From a virus (taxonomy: Duplodnaviria > Heunggongvirae > Uroviricota > Caudoviricetes): a stretch of 37,432 bases of DNA. The notes beneath the pieces were generated by a model that worked only from the letters and a program-made list of their open reading frames with translations, did no database searches and was not told where the DNA came from. Position 1 is the first letter of the stretch, and the number at the start of each line of letters is the position of its first letter. The position numbers and the translations under genes were made by a program. Positions 2,092 to 36,732 of the stretch are shown here, piece by piece. The stretch is from the IMG/VR virus record IMGVR_UViG_2724679140_000013, one strand, 5' to 3'.

Positions 2092-2505
2092 CTAACCCTT
2101 AGTTTCGTTATAGTCACGACCAGCAATACGATGGCCCTTGCCAGAAGCTCTTATTGTACCTGGAGCCAAACTACCAGCGGTCAAGGCTGCCAAAGCCGCC
2201 GCCTTAACAGCCAAAGGTGCAGAGCGATATATTTTAATTAGCTCAATCTCATCTTCAGTGGCATTAGGGATGCCATGTGCACGACTACCAGAAAGTATGT
2301 AATAGACATCTACTCCGCAGCGCCTTCCCAAGAGATTCAGCATAGCTGCATCCGGTGTAGTCACCCCTCTTTCATACTTCCCCCAAGTCTTTGTAGAAAC
2401 TTCAAAAATAGACGCCATATCATCCTGAGTCATGCCAGTTTTCTCTCGTTCCTCCCGTAATCGACGTCCAATAATGACACTTAATTCCTCTTTTTCTGTT
2501 GACAT
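2092..2505 (-). CDS. HTH (XRE-family) immunity repressor, C/CI-like
   Basis: 137 aa; HTH segment GMTQDDMASIFEVSTKTWGKYERG; divergent from the early operon; sits between int and early genes as in P2. Confidence 0.8.
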   Translation of the reverse strand: MSTEKEELSVIIGRRLREEREKTGMTQDDMASIFEVSTKTWGKYERGVTTPDAAMLNLLGRRCGVDVYYILSGSRAHGIPNATEDEIELIKIYRSAPLAVKAAALAALTAGSLAPGTIRASGKGHRIAGRDYNETKG

Positions 2506-3912: not shown

Positions 3913-4022
3913 GTATATTTATCTCATGGCTTGTTCTGATTATTTCGGTGGCCTGCGCCATTGGGATTATGCGAATTATTCATTCAGTAAAAAAGATTGA
4001 ACGCTTTTTCACTGGCGAATAA
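3909..4022 (+). CDS. possible 37-aa single-TM membrane peptide
   Basis: ATG at 3909 overlaps upstream stop (ATGA coupling); translation MSIFISWLVLIISVACAIGIMRIIHSVKKIERFFTGE; below ORF-track size cutoff. Confidence 0.3.
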   Translation: MSIFISWLVLIISVACAIGIMRIIHSVKKIERFFTGE

Positions 4023-4108
4023 CAGAGCAAATAAAACCACAGGTTAAATAAGAAAATGTAAAAACAATCCGCATTCGCGGAGGTATTCGCACACGCCAAG
4101 GAGGCGTA

Positions 4109-4861: not shown

Positions 4862-5065
4862 ATGAACAAAAAGACCTGGTTTCGCGCATACATGTGGGCG
4901 CTGGTATGCGTCCTCGTTTCTCTCATTCTGTATGCAGGACTACTCCCCCGAATGATTTCATCAGACAGCTCCTTCTTGGTATTGCTGGGCATTTTCATTG
5001 CCATGCTGTACCCGGCAGGCGTTGTTCGCCTTTTCAGTAAGTACATCAAGGAAATCAAACAATGA
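4862..5065 (+). CDS. small two-TM membrane protein, possible partner of downstream SPFH protein
   Basis: 67 aa; two hydrophobic helices (WALVCVLVSLILYAGLL and FLVLLGIFIAMLYPAGVV); stop overlaps start of next gene. Confidence 0.5.
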   Translation: MNKKTWFRAYMWALVCVLVSLILYAGLLPRMISSDSSFLVLLGIFIAMLYPAGVVRLFSKYIKEIKQ

Positions 5066-5892
5066 AGAAACTCAAACTCTTTCAGATTATCCCGCTTTTT
5101 GCCGCCATCCTGCTGGTTGGTTGCGATCGCGTTGAGCCAGGTAATGTGGGCATCAAAGTCAACAAACTGGGCGACGACAAAGGCGTCGGTGAAGTGGTTG
5201 GCGTTGGCCGCTACTGGACAGGCTGGAATACAGAGGTTTACATCTTCCCGACCTTCAAACAAATGAAGACCTACGATGAGCCGTTCAGCTTTCAGATGAG
5301 TGACGGCACAACCATCGGCTATCACATCGGTGTGGCCTACAAGGTTGATCCATCCAAAGTTACTACAGTGTTTCAGACCTACCGCAAAGGCGTGGACGAC
5401 ATTACCGACACTGACCTGCGCCAGAAGATCGCCGATGCACTCAACCGACTGGCCAGCAAAATGACCACCGATAAATTCATCGACGGTGGCAAGTCTGAAC
5501 TGCTGGATTCAGCACTTAAAGATATTCAGGAAGAGATGACCCCCATCGGTATTCAGGTCATGAGCCTCTCTTATGTCGGTAAACCGGAATATCCGCCAAC
5601 CGTTATCGACAGCATTAACGCCAAAGTCACGGCAAACCAGAAAACCCTGCAACGCGAACAGGAAGTCAAGCAACGCGAAGCAGAAGCCAACATGTTGCGC
5701 GCAGAAGCTGCCGGACAGGCTGATGCCATTCGCACAAAAGCCCAGGCTGAAGCCGACGCCATTCGTTTACGCGGTGAAGCTCTGCGCCAGAATCCCGGCG
5801 TTATGGAGCTGGAAGCAATCAACAAATGGAACGGCACGCTGCCGCAATACATGACCAGCAATACCGCTGTTCCGTTTGTTCCGGTGAAGTAA
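5062..5892 (+). CDS. SPFH/band-7 (HflC/prohibitin-like) domain lipoprotein
   Basis: 276 aa; lipobox LLVGC after signal peptide; SPFH-like core followed by Ala/Glu/Arg-rich coiled-coil (QREQEVKQREAEANMLRAEAAGQADAIRTKAQAEADAIRLRGEA) and C-terminal WNGTLP motif. Confidence 0.75.
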   Translation: MKKLKLFQIIPLFAAILLVGCDRVEPGNVGIKVNKLGDDKGVGEVVGVGRYWTGWNTEVYIFPTFKQMKTYDEPFSFQMSDGTTIGYHIGVAYKVDPSKVTTVFQTYRKGVDDITDTDLRQKIADALNRLASKMTTDKFIDGGKSELLDSALKDIQEEMTPIGIQVMSLSYVGKPEYPPTVIDSINAKVTANQKTLQREQEVKQREAEANMLRAEAAGQADAIRTKAQAEADAIRLRGEALRQNPGVMELEAINKWNGTLPQYMTSNTAVPFVPVK

Positions 5893-6057
5893 TTAAACCC
5901 GGCCAGTGAAAATCGCTGGCCGGAGCAGTATCAGGATTTTTTAGTATGCCGTTCTCACAAAAAAACCGCTTGCCATGCCGCAATCAGTCAGGTTACATTT
6001 CCGCTGCACCTCATAAAACGGGTGCCGGGATTGGAACCCCGCAGACTAACAGAGCGC

Positions 6058-6080
6058 ACAACCGCGCCAGCGGTTTTTTT
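6058..6080 (+). terminator. putative intrinsic terminator within the SPFH-to-A noncoding stretch
   Basis: short GC hairpin accgc-gcca-gcggt followed by T7 run. Confidence 0.4.
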
Positions 6081-6259
6081 GTGCGTACCGTATCGCCACG
6101 TCTTTTTCGCGTCAAAATTATGGTGGGGCGTACAGGGCCAGCATCAGCTGGGCCGGGTCCTCTGTTAGCCGGTAGTTCCAACCCTGTACGTCTCACCACC
6201 CCGAGCTTGGAACCTCTGGATGGTGAGTTTTCAAAACTGACTAACAGAGAGGCCACACC

Positions 6260-6487
6260 ATGGCAAACCGCAAACAGCGCGCATACGCTGCGCGTCGTCA
6301 CATCCAGACTGAAATCGACCGCAGACTTTCCCGCGCATTCCGCGTCGCTAAAATCATGCACATCAACATGCTGCATGAGCGTAGCTGCGAACTTTCAAAC
6401 CTCTACTCATCCGCTGTTTTCAGCTATCTGGCGGATGATCTGCGCGAGCTTCAACAGCTCATCCAGCAGCAAAACAAACTCCATTAA
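6260..6487 (+). CDS. hypothetical small basic protein
   Basis: 75 aa; GAGAGG SD upstream of ATG. Confidence 0.45.
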   Translation: MANRKQRAYAARRHIQTEIDRRLSRAFRVAKIMHINMLHERSCELSNLYSSAVFSYLADDLRELQQLIQQQNKLH

Positions 6488-6559
6488 TTCCTGTTCCGGG
6501 CCTTTCCTGCACCTTGCGGCGGGAGGCCTTCGCACATCTGTAACAAGAGGATTGCCGCA

Positions 6560-6925
6560 ATGATTCTCGCCAACGACTTTCTTGAATACCTGCTCAACAC
6601 AGAACGTGATCTTGCCGCTCGCGTGCGTGATCGTTATGACATGTACCTGAAATCCCTGCCTGTACCGCAACTCGCTGACGGAAAAATTGTTATTGATGGT
6701 CGCTACATGATTGACAGCCACGAGGGAAATTACAGGCTTTACCGCATTGAAGGTGGCACCCCGTCCGTTATTGGCATTTACCAGCGCCCATCCTCTGCAA
6801 TCGTCGATGTGATTGCCGACAGCATCCGCATCACACATCGCCATGCCGACACAGAAGACACCGTGCTGGAAATTCAGCGGCTGGCTGCCGTCTGCCGCGA
6901 CACCCTGAATGGCATGACGAAGTAA
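6560..6925 (+). CDS. hypothetical protein preceding replication gene
   Basis: 121-aa ORF immediately upstream of A. Confidence 0.5.
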   Translation: MILANDFLEYLLNTERDLAARVRDRYDMYLKSLPVPQLADGKIVIDGRYMIDSHEGNYRLYRIEGGTPSVIGIYQRPSSAIVDVIADSIRITHRHADTEDTVLEIQRLAAVCRDTLNGMTK

Positions 6926-6931
6926 ATCACT

Positions 6932-9754
6932 ATGACGGCAGAGTACATCAGGGACTGGCAACAGCCGCGCCACGCAGTGGGACGTGAAGGAACGGGGATC
7001 CCCGTTCCTGAATCCGCGCTTTCCTCCTGGCTGGATGCCTACCGGGCAGAGAACGAGCGCCGCCAGGAAATGGCTGATGCGGCGTTCTCCGCCACGCCGC
7101 TGGGCAACCTGATTAATAAAAGCCTGGATGCACAGGAAAAACAGGACAAAACCATCACACTGGCAGGAGACGCCAGAAAACAGGTACGCGGTGCGGTGGA
7201 TGAAGCCATGGCCTCGCTGCGCCTGCTGCCGTCCTATCTGCGCGATCCGCTTATTCGCCACCTCTCCTTCCTGCGCAAAAAACAGGAAGCCGATCGCCGG
7301 AAAGGCAAAAAGAGCTGGCAGGCTGAACGCTACGCGCGCGGAACCCTGCGCAAAATATTCGAACGTCTGGACCGCACCGACCACCGCTGGCTGACACCGG
7401 GTTATCGCTCCCTTGCCGGACGCGAACGCCTGGATGATTTGCTTTACCTGCCGCAGCTCAACAAGCACCAGATACAGACGCTGGCCACCATGACGGCGGC
7501 GATGTTCAGCAGCACCTTCGAAAAACTCTGCGATGGCTTTGGCGCGACTGATGGCGAGCTGACCATGGAGGTAACGCTGAAGGCGTATCAGATGCTGGCC
7601 CGCATGGCGTTACACCTGCACGCCATGCCTCCGCATTATGACGCACTGACAACAGACAAAGACCGGAGGAACGAACCGGACACGGAGTTGCTGCCGGGCG
7701 CAATCCTTCGCCTGACCTGTGCGGAATGGTGGAAACGCAAACTGTGGCTGTTACGTTGCGAGTGGCGGGAAGAACAACTCCGCGCCGCCTGTCTGGTTTC
7801 CAGAAAAACATCGCCCTATCTGAGCCAGGACGCGTTAAGCGAGTTTCGAGCACAGCGCGAGAAAACACGCGATTTCCTGAAAAGTTTCATGCTGGAAAAC
7901 GAAGACGGGTTCACGATTGATCTCGAGACGGTGTATTACGCGGGAGTAAGTAATCCGGTTCATCGTAAGGCAGAAATGATGGCCACCATGAAGGGGCTGG
8001 AACTTCTGGCCGAAGCCCGTGGCGACAAAGCGGTGTTTCTGACTGTCACCTGCCCGTCAAAATACCACGCCACAACAGAGAACGGTCATCCGAATCCCAA
8101 ATGGAACGGGGCCACCATGCGCGACTCCAGCGATTACCTGGTTAACACGTTTTTTGCGGCGGTCCGCAAGAAACTGAACCGCGACGGCCTGCGCTGGTAT
8201 GGCATCCGCACGGTGGAGCCTCACCATGACGGCACCGTGCACTGGCATATGATGGTCTTTGCTCATCCGGAAGAAATCGACACCATTGTGTCCCACACCC
8301 GCGATATTGCCATTCAGGAAGATCGTCACGAGCTGGGTGATGATATTACCCCACGCTTTAAGGCGGAGTACGTCGACGGCTCAAAAGGCACACCGACCAG
8401 CTACATCGCCACCTACATCGGGAAAAACCTGGACAGCCGTGCCGTGGATGGCATCGACCCGAAAACGGGCAAGCCACGCGTTGACCACGAAACCGGAAAA
8501 TCAATGGCCGAGAGCGTGGAACGCGCCATCGGCTGGGCGCGCCTTCACCGGGTCCGCCAGTTCCAGTTCTTTGGTATCCCCTCCCGTCAGGTGTGGCGTG
8601 AACTGCGCCGCCTTGCCAGCCAGATGGCTCGCAACCCGGAAGGACCGCAACGGCTGAAGGATGACGCAATGGACGCGGTTCTTGCTTCCGCTGATGCCGG
8701 ATGTTTTGCCACCTACATAGAGAAACAGGGCGGCGTACTTGTTCCACGCAAGGACTACCTGATTCGCACCGCCTACGACCTCGCAGATGAGCTGAACGAT
8801 TACGGTGAACAGAGCGTACAGATTTACGGGATCTGGTCACCGCTCATCGGGGAGTCTTCCCGCGTATGCACGCATCCGGACAACTGGAAGCTGGTAAGAC
8901 GCAAACCGGAAGCGGAAGACAGCGCCCGCGAAAATGGTTTTGACCTTCAGGGCGGCCCTGCCGCCCCTTGGACTCGTGGCAATAACTGTCCCCGTATACA
9001 GGAAACGGGCAACAACGGGACAGAACAGCCGGAAGAACGGCCAGCACCGTGGCCGCAGCTTCCTGACGGCGTTGACGTGAATGAATGGATGCGCTCACTG
9101 AAACGGCACGAACACCGGGCGCTGATGCGTTCGCTGCGTGACAAACAGGCAAAAAACAGCAGTGATGAAATGCAGAACTGGACACAGAGCCGCAAACAGC
9201 CACAGCCTTTGCCTGATAACCACGAGTTACTCGCTAAAGAATGGCGGGAGTCTGCTGAATCTCTCGGCCTGCATATCGGTGAACAGCAGATGCAGCACCT
9301 GTTACGGGGCGGCAGTCTGTACGTTGACGGCAGCATCATTGCACCGCAGGGATTTGAAATTGTACGCAAACCGGATACCCGCCCGGACAGCCGAATCACG
9401 CAGCTCTGGCAGCGCCTGAGCCGTAACCACGGCGTAAGCAGCACGGAGATCCGCCATAACCCGGTCGCCAGCTATCTGGAACAGCTGGGGGCATCAGACC
9501 CCGAAGCCGCCGCACGCCTGGCATCCACACTTCAGCAAGACCAGAACACCATGAAAACACCCGTTACCGTGCTTTCTGACATGCTGCGCGCCATCCGCGA
9601 CGCAGAGCACGCACAGAGAATCAGTGAAACCACTGAACGCGCCCGCCGCAAAGCAGACCTGCTGCGGGGTGGCCTGACCAGTGGAAACAAAAAACAGACA
9701 GAAACGGGATTCACAAATCCCGTAAATGAGCAAAAAACGCGCCGCGATATATGA
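6932..9754 (+). CDS. A: rolling-circle replication initiator (P2 gpA family endonuclease)
   Basis: 940 aa; HUH-type motif EPHHDGTVHWHMMVFAHP and downstream tyrosine motif YIATYIGKN; last early gene as in P2; longer than P2 A (about 760 aa) through a C-terminal extension. Confidence 0.85.
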   Translation: MTAEYIRDWQQPRHAVGREGTGIPVPESALSSWLDAYRAENERRQEMADAAFSATPLGNLINKSLDAQEKQDKTITLAGDARKQVRGAVDEAMASLRLLPSYLRDPLIRHLSFLRKKQEADRRKGKKSWQAERYARGTLRKIFERLDRTDHRWLTPGYRSLAGRERLDDLLYLPQLNKHQIQTLATMTAAMFSSTFEKLCDGFGATDGELTMEVTLKAYQMLARMALHLHAMPPHYDALTTDKDRRNEPDTELLPGAILRLTCAEWWKRKLWLLRCEWREEQLRAACLVSRKTSPYLSQDALSEFRAQREKTRDFLKSFMLENEDGFTIDLETVYYAGVSNPVHRKAEMMATMKGLELLAEARGDKAVFLTVTCPSKYHATTENGHPNPKWNGATMRDSSDYLVNTFFAAVRKKLNRDGLRWYGIRTVEPHHDGTVHWHMMVFAHPEEIDTIVSHTRDIAIQEDRHELGDDITPRFKAEYVDGSKGTPTSYIATYIGKNLDSRAVDGIDPKTGKPRVDHETGKSMAESVERAIGWARLHRVRQFQFFGIPSRQVWRELRRLASQMARNPEGPQRLKDDAMDAVLASADAGCFATYIEKQGGVLVPRKDYLIRTAYDLADELNDYGEQSVQIYGIWSPLIGESSRVCTHPDNWKLVRRKPEAEDSARENGFDLQGGPAAPWTRGNNCPRIQETGNNGTEQPEERPAPWPQLPDGVDVNEWMRSLKRHEHRALMRSLRDKQAKNSSDEMQNWTQSRKQPQPLPDNHELLAKEWRESAESLGLHIGEQQMQHLLRGGSLYVDGSIIAPQGFEIVRKPDTRPDSRITQLWQRLSRNHGVSSTEIRHNPVASYLEQLGASDPEAAARLASTLQQDQNTMKTPVTVLSDMLRAIRDAEHAQRISETTERARRKADLLRGGLTSGNKKQTETGFTNPVNEQKTRRDI

Positions 9755-9830: not shown

Positions 9831-10790
9831 ATGAAAATTTGTATCGATGACGGCTCCACCAACATCAAGCTGGCATGGACTGAGAACGGCGAACGCCGCA
9901 ACGCCATCAGCCCGAACAGCTTCAAGTCGGAATGGTCTGCGCCGTTCGGTGGAACGCAGCCCGCAAACTACATGCTTGATGGCGTGCGCTATGGTTTTGA
10001 TCCGGTCAGCGATCGCTTTGTCCAGACGACCGACACGCAATACCAGTACAGCGATGTGAATGTCATTGCCATTCATCACGCGCTGGTCAAATCAGGCATC
10101 ACACCACAGGAAGTGGATGTGGTTGTCACCCTGCCACTGAGCGAATATTTCGACACCAACGCACAGCCGGACATGGCCAACATCAACCGCAAAAAAGCAA
10201 ACGTCATGCGCCCGGTGGCGTACCAGAACGGAAAAGCATTCACTATCCGTAACGTACGGGTTATGCCTGAATCCATTCCGGCTGGTTTTAAAGCACTGGC
10301 TGACATGAGTCCGTTTGAATCCCTGCTGATTGTGGATTTAGGCGGAACCACGCTGGATGTGGCAAAGGTTCAGGGACAACTGGCAGGTATCAGCCAGGTG
10401 TTTTGCGATCCACACGTAGGCGTTTCCCTGATGGCCGATGCCGTACTGTCGGTGATGGCCACTAACGGTATGCGTACCAGTCACCACATCGCCAATACCA
10501 TTATCGAACATCGCCATGATGAAGCCTGGCTGCGCCAGCACATCCACAATGACGCGCATTACGCCAGCCTGATGGCGGTTATTCGTGAAAAGGAAGAAAC
10601 ACTGAAACAACGCGTGATCCGCGCGCTGGCGGGTTTTTCGGGTTACGGGCGGGTGATGGTTGTCGGTGGAGGGGCGGAGATTGTGGCACCCGCTATCCGC
10701 GAAGCCTGCGGAGTTAATGCGACTTTCATCGCGGACGGGGTGCCACAGTTTGCTCTGGTTAACGGGCTGTACGCAATGGACAAGGAGTAA
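9831..10790 (+). CDS. parM: ParM/StbA-type actin-like partition ATPase
   Basis: 319 aa; N-terminus MKICIDDGSTNIKLAW and motifs YSDVNVIAIHHAL, IVDLGGTTLD, VMVVGGGAEI closely resemble plasmid R1 ParM as I recall it. Confidence 0.85.
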   Translation: MKICIDDGSTNIKLAWTENGERRNAISPNSFKSEWSAPFGGTQPANYMLDGVRYGFDPVSDRFVQTTDTQYQYSDVNVIAIHHALVKSGITPQEVDVVVTLPLSEYFDTNAQPDMANINRKKANVMRPVAYQNGKAFTIRNVRVMPESIPAGFKALADMSPFESLLIVDLGGTTLDVAKVQGQLAGISQVFCDPHVGVSLMADAVLSVMATNGMRTSHHIANTIIEHRHDEAWLRQHIHNDAHYASLMAVIREKEETLKQRVIRALAGFSGYGRVMVVGGGAEIVAPAIREACGVNATFIADGVPQFALVNGLYAMDKE

Positions 10791-36429: not shown

Positions 36430-36516
36430 TGGTACCCGGAGCGGGACTTGAACCCGCACAGCGCGAACGCCGAGGGATTTTAAATCCCTTGTGTCTACCG
36501 ATTCCACCATCCGGGC
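36430..36516 (-). tRNA. leuZ: tRNA-Leu (anticodon UAA)
   Basis: 87 nt; reverse complement reads GCCCGGATGGTGGAATCGGTAGACACAAGGGATTTAAAATCCC...GGGTACCA with anticodon loop TTTAAAA. Confidence 0.95.
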
Positions 36517-36528
36517 TCGGGAAGAAAG

Positions 36529-36602
36529 TGGAGGCGCGTTCCGGAGTCGAACCGGACTAGACGGATTTGCAATCCGCTACATAACCGCTTTGTTAACGCG
36601 CC
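36529..36602 (-). tRNA. cysT: tRNA-Cys (anticodon GCA)
   Basis: 74 nt; reverse complement GGCGCGTTAACAAAGCGGTTATGTAGCGGATTGCAAATCCGTC...CTCCA. Confidence 0.95.
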
Positions 36603-36656
36603 AAATTCTTCAGGCCTTTCAGCCAGACATCCGCTTGACGCCGATGTCTTTTAAAC

Positions 36657-36732
<76 letters not shown>

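Follow-up and report, generated by a model that had tools for sequence, protein, structure and literature searches.

The 367-nt interval at positions 5893 to 6259, located 3′ of an SPFH gene, is very probably an antisense-RNA immunity cassette of the P1 c4 / P4 CI type in the early operon of a P88-like (P2-type) prophage. All coordinates refer to the window, i.e., the whole stretch of DNA analyzed, with a length of 37,432 nt. The cassette contains two RNA genes in tandem, both identified by Rfam over the full length of the model. The first is an isrK RNA (RF01394; 6006–6080), scoring 72.4 bits against a GA of 50 (model positions 1–77 of 77). The second, which follows after a gap of 35 nt, is a C4 antisense RNA (RF01695; 6116–6203), scoring 78.5 bits against a GA of 45 (positions 1–87 of 87; E = 6e-14). 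In all features of RF01695 and RF01394 membership that a sequence can reveal, the window element agrees with both families. All 15 loci scanned in related phages, and P4 too, have the order isrK-then-C4, and in one phage record (GenBank LC710661.1) the tandem has already been annotated. Judged by its sequence elements, the layout is that of a1b1–c4–a2b2 in P1 immI and of seqA–CI–seqC in P4. The features are listed in Table 1.

Elements of this type are well represented in literature. The c4 antisense RNA and c4-a1b1 motifs have been listed together for gamma-proteobacteria and phages (Weinberg et al., 2010, PMC2864571). Hershko-Shalev et al. (2016, PMC4825925) regard IsrK as structurally homologous to P4 seqA and compare the processed downstream RNA with CI. 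Synthesis of Ant is repressed by c4 through pairing around the RBS (PMC12197685; PMC8546580). The cassette described here is a member of this well-known kind and does not represent a new one. It is counted as uncharacterized, because the RNA module is not mentioned in the papers on P88 and PhiSM and is not annotated in the RefSeq record of E. coli M8.

Table 1. Features of the cassette and its surroundings (positions in the window)
Feature	Position	Strand	Details
Stable hairpin	5898–5923	+	just 3′ of the SPFH stop codon; SPFH cargo
Through-ORF, 205 codons	5946–6563	+	Pfam Phage_ASH PF10554, 27.5 bits, GA 26, aa 17–108
A-tract arm CACAAAAAAACCGCT	5957–5971	+	exact complement of 6069–6083 (IsrK terminator, its 3′ half plus U-tract)
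IsrK promoter (predicted), sigma-70-like	5970–5999	+	TTGCCA, 18-nt spacer, TACATT; inferred start near 6006
IsrK-like leader sRNA (c4-a1b1 motif / P4 seqA leader)	6006–6080	+	RF01394; three hairpins
Box a1 TTGGAAC	6031–6037	+	8-nt loop of IsrK hairpin 2
Box b1 CTAACAGAG	6046–6054	+	IsrK leader, single-stranded
C4/CI-type antisense RNA precursor	6116–6203	+	RF01695; mature RNA ~6122–6198 by analogy with the 77-nt P1 c4
Box b′ CTCTGTTAG	6160–6168	+	loop of second C4 hairpin; complements b1 and b2
Box a′ GTTCCAA	6175–6181	+	single-stranded C4 junction; complements a1 and a2
Alternative hairpin	6192–6231	+	C4 3′ stem strand CTCACCA (6192–6198) pairs with TGGTGAG (6221–6227)
Box a2 TTGGAAC	6207–6213	+	8-nt apical hairpin loop 3′ of C4
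Box b2 CTAACAGAG	6241–6249	+	overlaps the Shine–Dalgarno sequence GAGAGG (6247–6252) of the gene with its ATG at 6260
Epsilon-like gene, 75 aa	6260–6487	+	PF25738 'Derepression' 28.4 bits, GA 27; phrog_3688 1e-41
orf121	6560–6925	+	same operon
Replication gene A, P2-type rolling-circle	6932–9754	+	PF05840 439 bits; phrog_3237

The two RNAs and their pairing boxes

The presumed regulator, the C4 antisense RNA, was overlooked in the initial annotation of this interval. Its predicted fold consists of a 17-bp closing stem around two hairpins (−47 kcal/mol, z −5.18). This fold is well supported by covariation, as among its 27 pairs in 14 phages, 15 show compensatory changes and none is broken. The closing stem is followed by a tRNA-like tail, which reads ACCC in the window and RCCA (GCCA or ACCA) in P1-like phages, P4 and several lambdoid copies; this deviation is a point against the reading proposed here. 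The IsrK leader has 15 pairs, seven of which show compensatory changes. It ends in an intrinsic terminator, equivalent to t1 of P4. This confirms the terminator-like hairpin with a T7 run that had been noticed in this region, a structure scan placing the hairpin at 6060–6075, directly before the U7 tract. Promoter-like hexamers, with predicted activity, are found upstream of isrK at a constant distance in all lineages examined. Binding of Hfq would be expected of an isrK RNA; what can be seen of it in the window sequence is a 3′ hairpin with a U7 tail.

The two RNAs are connected by short repeated boxes. The initial annotation had pointed to one 11-mer, GACTAACAGAG, which is indeed present in two exact copies, at 6044–6054 and 6239–6249, while by our own arithmetic only ~0.015 exact 11-mer pairs are expected in 367 nt. 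When one mismatch or less is allowed, the whole window has four matches to the 11-mer compared to 0.33 expected, a number that was reached in none of 100 shuffled sequences. One of the four, at 6160–6170, is the 11-mer in reverse complement and lies within the second, larger RNA. It had gone unnoticed, as had a second repeated box, TTGGAAC(C), present at 6031–6038 and 6207–6214 with its complement at 6175–6181. The search of the window for additional C4 targets yielded just a single one-mismatch copy of the 11-mer (4017–4027), which is at chance level. The b2 box adjoins the Shine–Dalgarno sequence in all 14 phages compared.

Besides its role in the closing stem, the 3′ stem strand of C4 can engage in an alternative hairpin with sequences further downstream. 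Within this hairpin, an inner GAG/CUC helix presents box a2, and UUUU follows at 6228–6231. The same fold can be formed in P4, in the P1-like phage RCS47 and in cdtI, with double-sided changes in the stem: CTCACCACC, GCTACCGC, GCTATCGCC and CCACCGC all have matching partners. A local hairpin sequestering the RBS is not claimed, as the region 6186–6262 folded alone is not significantly stable (z −0.79).

The alternative hairpin is of importance for the question how C4 would act. Conceivably, C4 mainly triggers premature transcription termination in the style of P4, using the IsrK terminator together with the hairpin at 6192–6231, instead of blocking the RBS. The gene order is that of the P4 left operon, an intrinsic terminator is located 3′ of a1/b1, and the hairpin with a U-rich tail between C4 and b2 is conserved in the window, P4 and cdtI. 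In P4, CI reportedly enhances termination at t1, and t4, situated between cI and timm, is said to be the main immunity terminator. However, the tail behind the stem at 6192–6227 is merely UUUU and is not U-rich in several lineages, and the 5′ strand of the hairpin is normally locked in the far stronger closing stem of C4. Moreover, b2 overlaps the Shine–Dalgarno sequence as it does in P1, where translational repression is accepted (PMC12197685). Termination as the main mode of action is therefore a possibility that we rate well below even, and RBS occlusion is retained as the working model.

Covariation of the boxes and specificity

If the boxes are sites of RNA–RNA pairing, the C4 boxes and both target copies should change together, which is what was found across phages. 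Pair counts on a whole-module MAFFT alignment were dropped, as this alignment left the hypervariable boxes out of register. For that reason, cognate and non-cognate combinations were compared directly in a complementarity matrix of 14 phages. With both target copies, cognate a boxes always pair over an uninterrupted stretch of at least 7 nt and cognate b boxes over 5–11 nt. For non-cognate combinations, the a+b sum averages 8.

The same picture emerges from close relatives. Approximately 20 combinations of a and b boxes occur in 119 P88-like loci. The pairing of the four boxes is perfect in 56 of the 63 distinct P88-like modules that were parsed; in six others, b contains either a G·U wobble or a single mismatch, while one module, which looks recombinant, has a non-matching a1. 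P88, the closest characterized relative, differs from the window in both box sets (GTGGAAA and CTGTAGTTG compared to GTTCCAA and CTCTGTTAG), and the targets match in each phage. The a and b boxes behave in the way that specificity determinants would.

A reading frame across the RNA module

The interval had been described as a structured noncoding gap. The RNA structures are indeed present, but the gap is not strictly free of ORFs, since a 205-codon frame, the through-ORF, spans 5946–6563. Its ATG precedes the 5′ end of IsrK by 60 nt, with an AGGA Shine–Dalgarno sequence 8 nt before it. After crossing IsrK, C4 and both a2 and b2, the through-ORF overlaps the epsilon-like gene in a different reading frame and terminates in an ATGA overlap with orf121. 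It is kept together with this ATGA junction in 66 of the 79 distinct P88-like modules. Synonymous recoding of the epsilon-like gene leaves the frame of the through-ORF open in just 5.3% of the trials. The match of its translation to PF10554 coincides with the RNA module, as it also does in P4 and in a Stx-phage "antirepressor." In addition, P88-like phages, lambdoid phages and P4 agree in the frame used with respect to IsrK and C4, their isrK-to-C4 spacings (110, 101, and 185 nt, respectively) being congruent modulo 3, i.e., differing by multiples of 3. In copies without the through-ORF, the spacing is 123, 100 or 99 nt. The presence of the ORF follows the genomic setting: it is found in cassettes embedded in an operon that is fed from upstream (the P88-like early operon, the lambdoid PR operon and P4) and is absent in the stand-alone cassettes of P1-like phages, Uetakevirus and F004. 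The idea that the through-ORF is a pure artefact was rejected in view of its maintenance, the ATGA junction and the frame shared with P4.

These observations raise the question whether the interval is mainly protein-coding, with the product of the 205-codon ORF being functional and the RNA-like features incidental. Besides the open frame, the ATGA junction and the spacing in multiples of 3, such a view is favored by the match to PF10554 just above its GA, by PHROG 'transcriptional regulator' families matching aa 13–111 and by the annotation of the ORF as a CDS in several P88-like genomes. However, the protein-family matches coincide precisely with the stretch of DNA occupied by the two RNA genes, so that nucleotide conservation alone could produce these matches. 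Moreover, P1-like phages, Uetakevirus and F004 lack the open frame, yet they have kept both RNAs and all boxes, and a coding function leaves the compensatory changes in the stems and the three-site covariation of the boxes unexplained. PGAP gives a partial pseudogene or no annotation, and BLASTP detected no similarity between the ORF of the window and that of P4. A mainly protein-coding interval is consequently improbable.

As coding and RNA functions do not preclude each other, a dual use of the DNA is favored, in which the RNA module is combined with an ORF that would serve as a translated bypass and would have no protein activity of its own. The bypass is modeled on P4. The corresponding ORF of P4 has 214 codons, or 197 when counted from the third Met, with a 65-codon Icd-like ORF nested in-frame. 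In their sizes, the 214/197-codon ORF and the nested 65-codon ORF match eta and kil, respectively. In P4, translation of eta from PLL transcripts reportedly makes them insensitive to immunity; to our knowledge, such a mechanism has been reported for P4 eta only. By analogy, ribosomes would cross the terminator, C4 and the targets, leaving lytic transcripts blind to RNA immunity. That the through-ORF is a conserved translated bypass of this kind, and not an ordinary protein family, is put forward tentatively, with the odds leaning against it. A kil- or Icd-like gene was not found in the through-ORF, the Icd-like domain of NCBIfam matching the P4 ORF only.

The A-tract arm upstream of IsrK

Another noticeable feature is the long-range pairing between an A7 and a T7 tract. 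This pairing, recorded in the initial annotation, is real in the sense that the arms at 5946–5973 and 6066–6093 are 82% complementary, with an exact core of 15 nt (CACAAAAAAACCGCT / AGCGGTTTTTTTGTG). When 5946–6093 is folded as one RNA, the long-range helix is favored (MFE −54.9 kcal/mol, z −4.64). However, the A-tract arm is located at −50 to −36 from the IsrK start, which corresponds to the UP-element and the edge of the −35 box of the promoter. As the arm is in this territory upstream of the start, it is not part of the IsrK RNA. In 118 P88-like modules both arms are near-invariant, with one A6/T6, one A7/T6 and one A7/T5 case, and they are absent from other lineages, so that there is no evidence from covariation either way. 

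The candidate sRNA of ~130 nt, for which a 3′ end near 6080 had been proposed, is indeed predicted to end at the T7 terminator, but judged by the isrK model of Rfam and by the promoter, which is conserved, its length is ~75 nt (6006–6080). A single ~130-nt sRNA bounded by A7…T7 and ending at 6080 as the regulator, with the 11-mers as protein or sRNA sites, is highly improbable: despite the thermodynamic preference for the long-range helix and the conservation of the exact 15-nt complementarity in P88-like phages, its left arm falls into the −35/UP region of the isrK promoter, which is present in all lineages, its pairing is missing from every module copy outside the P88-like group, its near-invariant arms lack covariation support, and the complement of the 11-mer is located in C4, outside the proposed RNA.

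The A-tract may nevertheless have a function on longer transcripts. On transcripts from the early promoter, its pairing would, on thermodynamic grounds, outcompete the terminator hairpin. The pairing may thereby be a promoter-specific antiterminator.

Genes downstream and genomic context

The first gene predicted to be gated by C4 is the epsilon-like gene, by which a derepression function is located immediately downstream of the cassette. The encoded protein is 33% identical to epsilon of P4, a helper derepression protein (E = 6e-9). The suggestion that the interval holds regulatory sites controlling entry into the replication genes is in this way correct as to direction, the 11-mers being target boxes and the downstream operon ending in replication gene A, but the directly gated gene would be the epsilon-like derepression gene. 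The epsilon-like proteins of the window and P88 are 84% identical and the immunity repressors of the two phages are unrelated, from which it can be argued that the phage's own repressor is perhaps not the target of the epsilon-like protein. No similarity was found between orf121 and P4 orf151, and an NCBIfam search of the window ORFs gave no match.

By nucleotide similarity, the host element is a P88-like (Xuanwuvirus, P2-type) prophage. The window is 90% identical to P88 over 5893–6563 and 100% identical to E. coli M8 over 5956–6563. A core of ~250 nt is shared, at ~70–74% identity, with over 150 phages (lambdoid/Stx, Salmonella, Klebsiella and P1-like). Among 5426 complete E. coli genomes, 1145 (~21%) contain the module. 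In the records inspected, the RNAs are unannotated, as in RefSeq E. coli M8, or labeled as a hypothetical or 'ash family' protein.

The cassette does not extend over the entire interval. The hairpin at 5898–5923 was correctly noticed before and is a stable structure (11-bp stem, −21.8 kcal/mol, z −4.08; none of 200 shuffles folds equally well). Its inclusion in the cassette does not hold, as only the window and P88 have the hairpin, together with the SPFH cargo. Among P88-like phages with other upstream cargo, homology starts only at ~5955. The hairpin is likely a terminator or an mRNA-stabilizing stem-loop of the SPFH cargo.

Proposed mechanism

With the anatomy and the covariation of the cassette shown above, its regulatory steps can be inferred from P1, P4 and Gifsy-1. 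The IsrK promoter would be constitutive, and most transcripts would end at the terminator at 6080, yielding an IsrK RNA of ~75 nt. From read-through transcripts, RNase P would release a C4 RNA of ~77 nt by cleavage at the closing stem, which is tRNA-like. C4 would subsequently pair with the mRNA via a′/a2 (7 bp) and b′/b2 (9 bp), by which the RBS of the epsilon-like gene is expected to be occluded. Through polarity or termination, orf121 and replication gene A would be silenced as well on transcripts of matching specificity, including those of superinfecting relatives. Binding of C4 to a1/b1 might make the IsrK terminator more efficient, in analogy with t1 of P4, which would result in autoregulation. 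Alternatively, free IsrK could titrate C4 and thereby activate the operon, in the manner of Gifsy-1. Lastly, when the early promoter fires, translation of the through-ORF, possibly assisted by the A-tract antiterminator, may carry transcription past the cassette despite the presence of C4, in analogy with P4 eta.

Comparison with known systems

The immunity region of P4 is organized in the order PLE, the seqA leader with t1, the CI RNA, seqC, kil/eta, epsilon, orf151, orf106 and alpha. The window mirrors this left operon in its order of promoter, leader, antisense RNA, targets, epsilon and replication gene. The same two Rfam models match P4 in the same order, and the same two-box logic applies, with boxes a (GTGAGAA) and b (TTCACAGG), both flanking copies of which are complemented by the C4-type RNA, and with a2 in an 8-nt loop. 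As in the window, the through-ORF of P4 has its start before the leader promoter and matches PF10554, and its frame with respect to the RNAs is identical. In both elements, an epsilon-family gene and then a replication gene follow downstream. However, there are differences. The window derives from a full P2-type phage of the helper class, whereas P4 is a satellite. In the window, the epsilon-like gene is the first one after the seqC equivalent, without an Icd/kil-like ORF, and the through-ORF is read in a different frame from the gated gene and terminates on orf121, in contrast to the in-frame nesting in P4. The replication protein is a rolling-circle gpA instead of the alpha primase-helicase, and the isrK-to-C4 spacing is 110 nt compared to 185 nt in P4.

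The immI operon of P1 and P7 has the order P51, a1b1, c4, a2b2, icd and ant1/2. The P1-like phage RCS47 resembles the window in having the isrK and C4 tandem, matching a and b boxes, and a b2 box that adjoins the Shine–Dalgarno sequence. In P1/P7 immI, the antisense RNA gates an anti-repressor function, comparable to the gating proposed for the window, and box differences between related phages form the basis of P1/P7 heteroimmunity (PMC12197685). In contrast to the cassette of the window, immI of P1 is a stand-alone operon with a spacing of 123 nt and without a through-ORF. It gates icd and ant, whereas the epsilon-like gene and the replication operon would be gated in the window.

Gifsy-1 contains the founding Rfam isrK member. 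In its isrK–orf45 (STnc1160)–anrP region, one promoter gives rise to a short terminated IsrK and a read-through transcript. Further downstream, there are a processed RNA with complementarity to IsrK and an anti-repressor-like gene (PMC4825925). The window is similar to Gifsy-1 in these features. It differs in that activation in Gifsy-1, where IsrK opens the RBS of orf45 in trans, is experimentally supported, while the P88-like copy is known from its sequence. Furthermore, the downstream gene of Gifsy-1 encodes a protein of the Rha/Ant type instead of an epsilon-like protein. The elements in the window match the motifs c4 and c4-a1b1 described by Weinberg et al. (2010) over the full length, with differences confined to box sequences and genomic context.

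Biological significance

The value of these findings is mainly in the annotation of a module that occurs in roughly one in five complete E. coli genomes, in prophage cross-immunity and in the lead provided by the through-ORF. The principle itself is not new, as it was established by P1/P7 heteroimmunity and P4 immunity decades ago. If the through-ORF acts as proposed, a translated bypass would be general wherever an IsrK–C4 cassette is located in an operon that is fed from upstream, such as those of P4 (PLL), lambdoid phages (PR) and P88-like phages, with the stand-alone P1-like and P22-like cassettes lacking the ORF. In that case, P4-type RNA immunity and an epsilon homolog would be native to P2-like phages of the helper class, with possible cross-talk at the RNA level with P4-like satellites. 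Finally, the diversity of the boxes in phages that are otherwise ~90% identical suggests that many RNA-immunity specificities exist among P88-like prophages. Such specificities would decide which relatives are able to turn on their genes for derepression and replication in a particular lysogen.

A conserved alternative helix downstream of C4

The 3′ strand of the closing stem of the C4 antisense RNA can also pair with a downstream mimic of the 5′ strand of that same stem, forming an alternative helix (see table). This helix is conserved and occurs at the P4, RCS47 (a P1-like phage) and cdtI loci as well, and it shows double-sided covariation across the window and these three loci. Box a2, one of the C4 targets, is displayed in its 8-nt loop, and a U-rich tail follows the helix in some lineages only. 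The helix could be the equivalent of the P4 terminator t4, a processing switch or a means of presenting the target. Between genes of the early operon, at 4017-4027, there is a copy with one mismatch of the 11-mer that contains the b box (GAATAACAGAG). As a candidate additional target of C4 it is probably fortuitous, with 0.33 such matches expected.

Domain annotation of the cassette

The Pfam family PF10554 (Phage_ASH) matches the translated DNA of the IsrK-C4-seqC cassette and not epsilon, both in the window (5946-6270) and in P4 (L016, 8329-8704) and locus L002 (2494-2785). The same translation is matched by PHROGs 995, 821 and 6928, labeled as transcriptional regulator or repressor, again not epsilon; P4 epsilon proper corresponds to PF25738. 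PF10554 has served as the epsilon marker in a survey of P4-like satellites (PMC8628076). As this family covers the DNA of the RNA immunity system, that survey in effect detected the RNA-immunity region adjoining epsilon.

Neighboring genes

Features of the window outside the IsrK and C4 RNAs, with the alternative helix
Feature	Position	Strand	Remarks
Immunity repressor	2092-2505	-	137-aa HTH protein; compared with the P88 C gene
Cargo block	4862-5892 and 5898-5923		small membrane-protein ORF (67 aa), SPFH/Band-7 gene and strong hairpin
Alternative helix	6192-6231		C4 closing-stem 3′ strand and downstream mimic of the 5′ strand
ParM/StbA	9831-10790		full-length actin-like plasmid-segregation protein; PF06406 and PF21523
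tRNA cluster	36430-36732	-	Leu(TAA)-Cys(GCA)-Gly(GCC)

The SPFH cargo block is shared with P88; other P88-like phages lack it and carry different genes at that spot. Replication gene A (6932-9754) is an intact ORF of 940 codons (2823 nt) in the window, versus a 2824-nt 'frameshifted' pseudogene in the RefSeq annotation of E. coli M8 (NZ_CP019953.1, 2246428-2249251), which is identical to the window over 5956-6563. Either the two sequences differ by 1 nt here, or the discrepancy stems from the sequencing or the annotation. Directly after gene A of this integrated P2-type prophage lies the ParM/StbA gene, whose P88 homolog is annotated as 'recombinase'. The tRNA cluster is located near the right end expected for a prophage of P88 length, possibly marking the attachment region or the flanking chromosome.

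Exchange of immunity determinants

The early operon downstream of the window repressor is approximately 90% identical to that of P88, but the repressor itself has essentially no relationship to the P88 C protein (93 aa). Both the region for protein immunity and the boxes of the RNA immunity have been swapped between the two phages. Among the P88-like modules from IMG/VR (L017-L136), a and b boxes assort independently, with about 20 combinations found of some 6 a-types and 11 b-types. Moreover, a′ GTCTCAA is common to P88-like modules, RCS47 and Klebsiella Kp4865, and a′ ACGCCAA to cdtI and O157 typing phage 9. This independent assortment, together with the occurrence of some box types in unrelated phages, suggests recombination within the cassette, and cross-family immunity would be possible.
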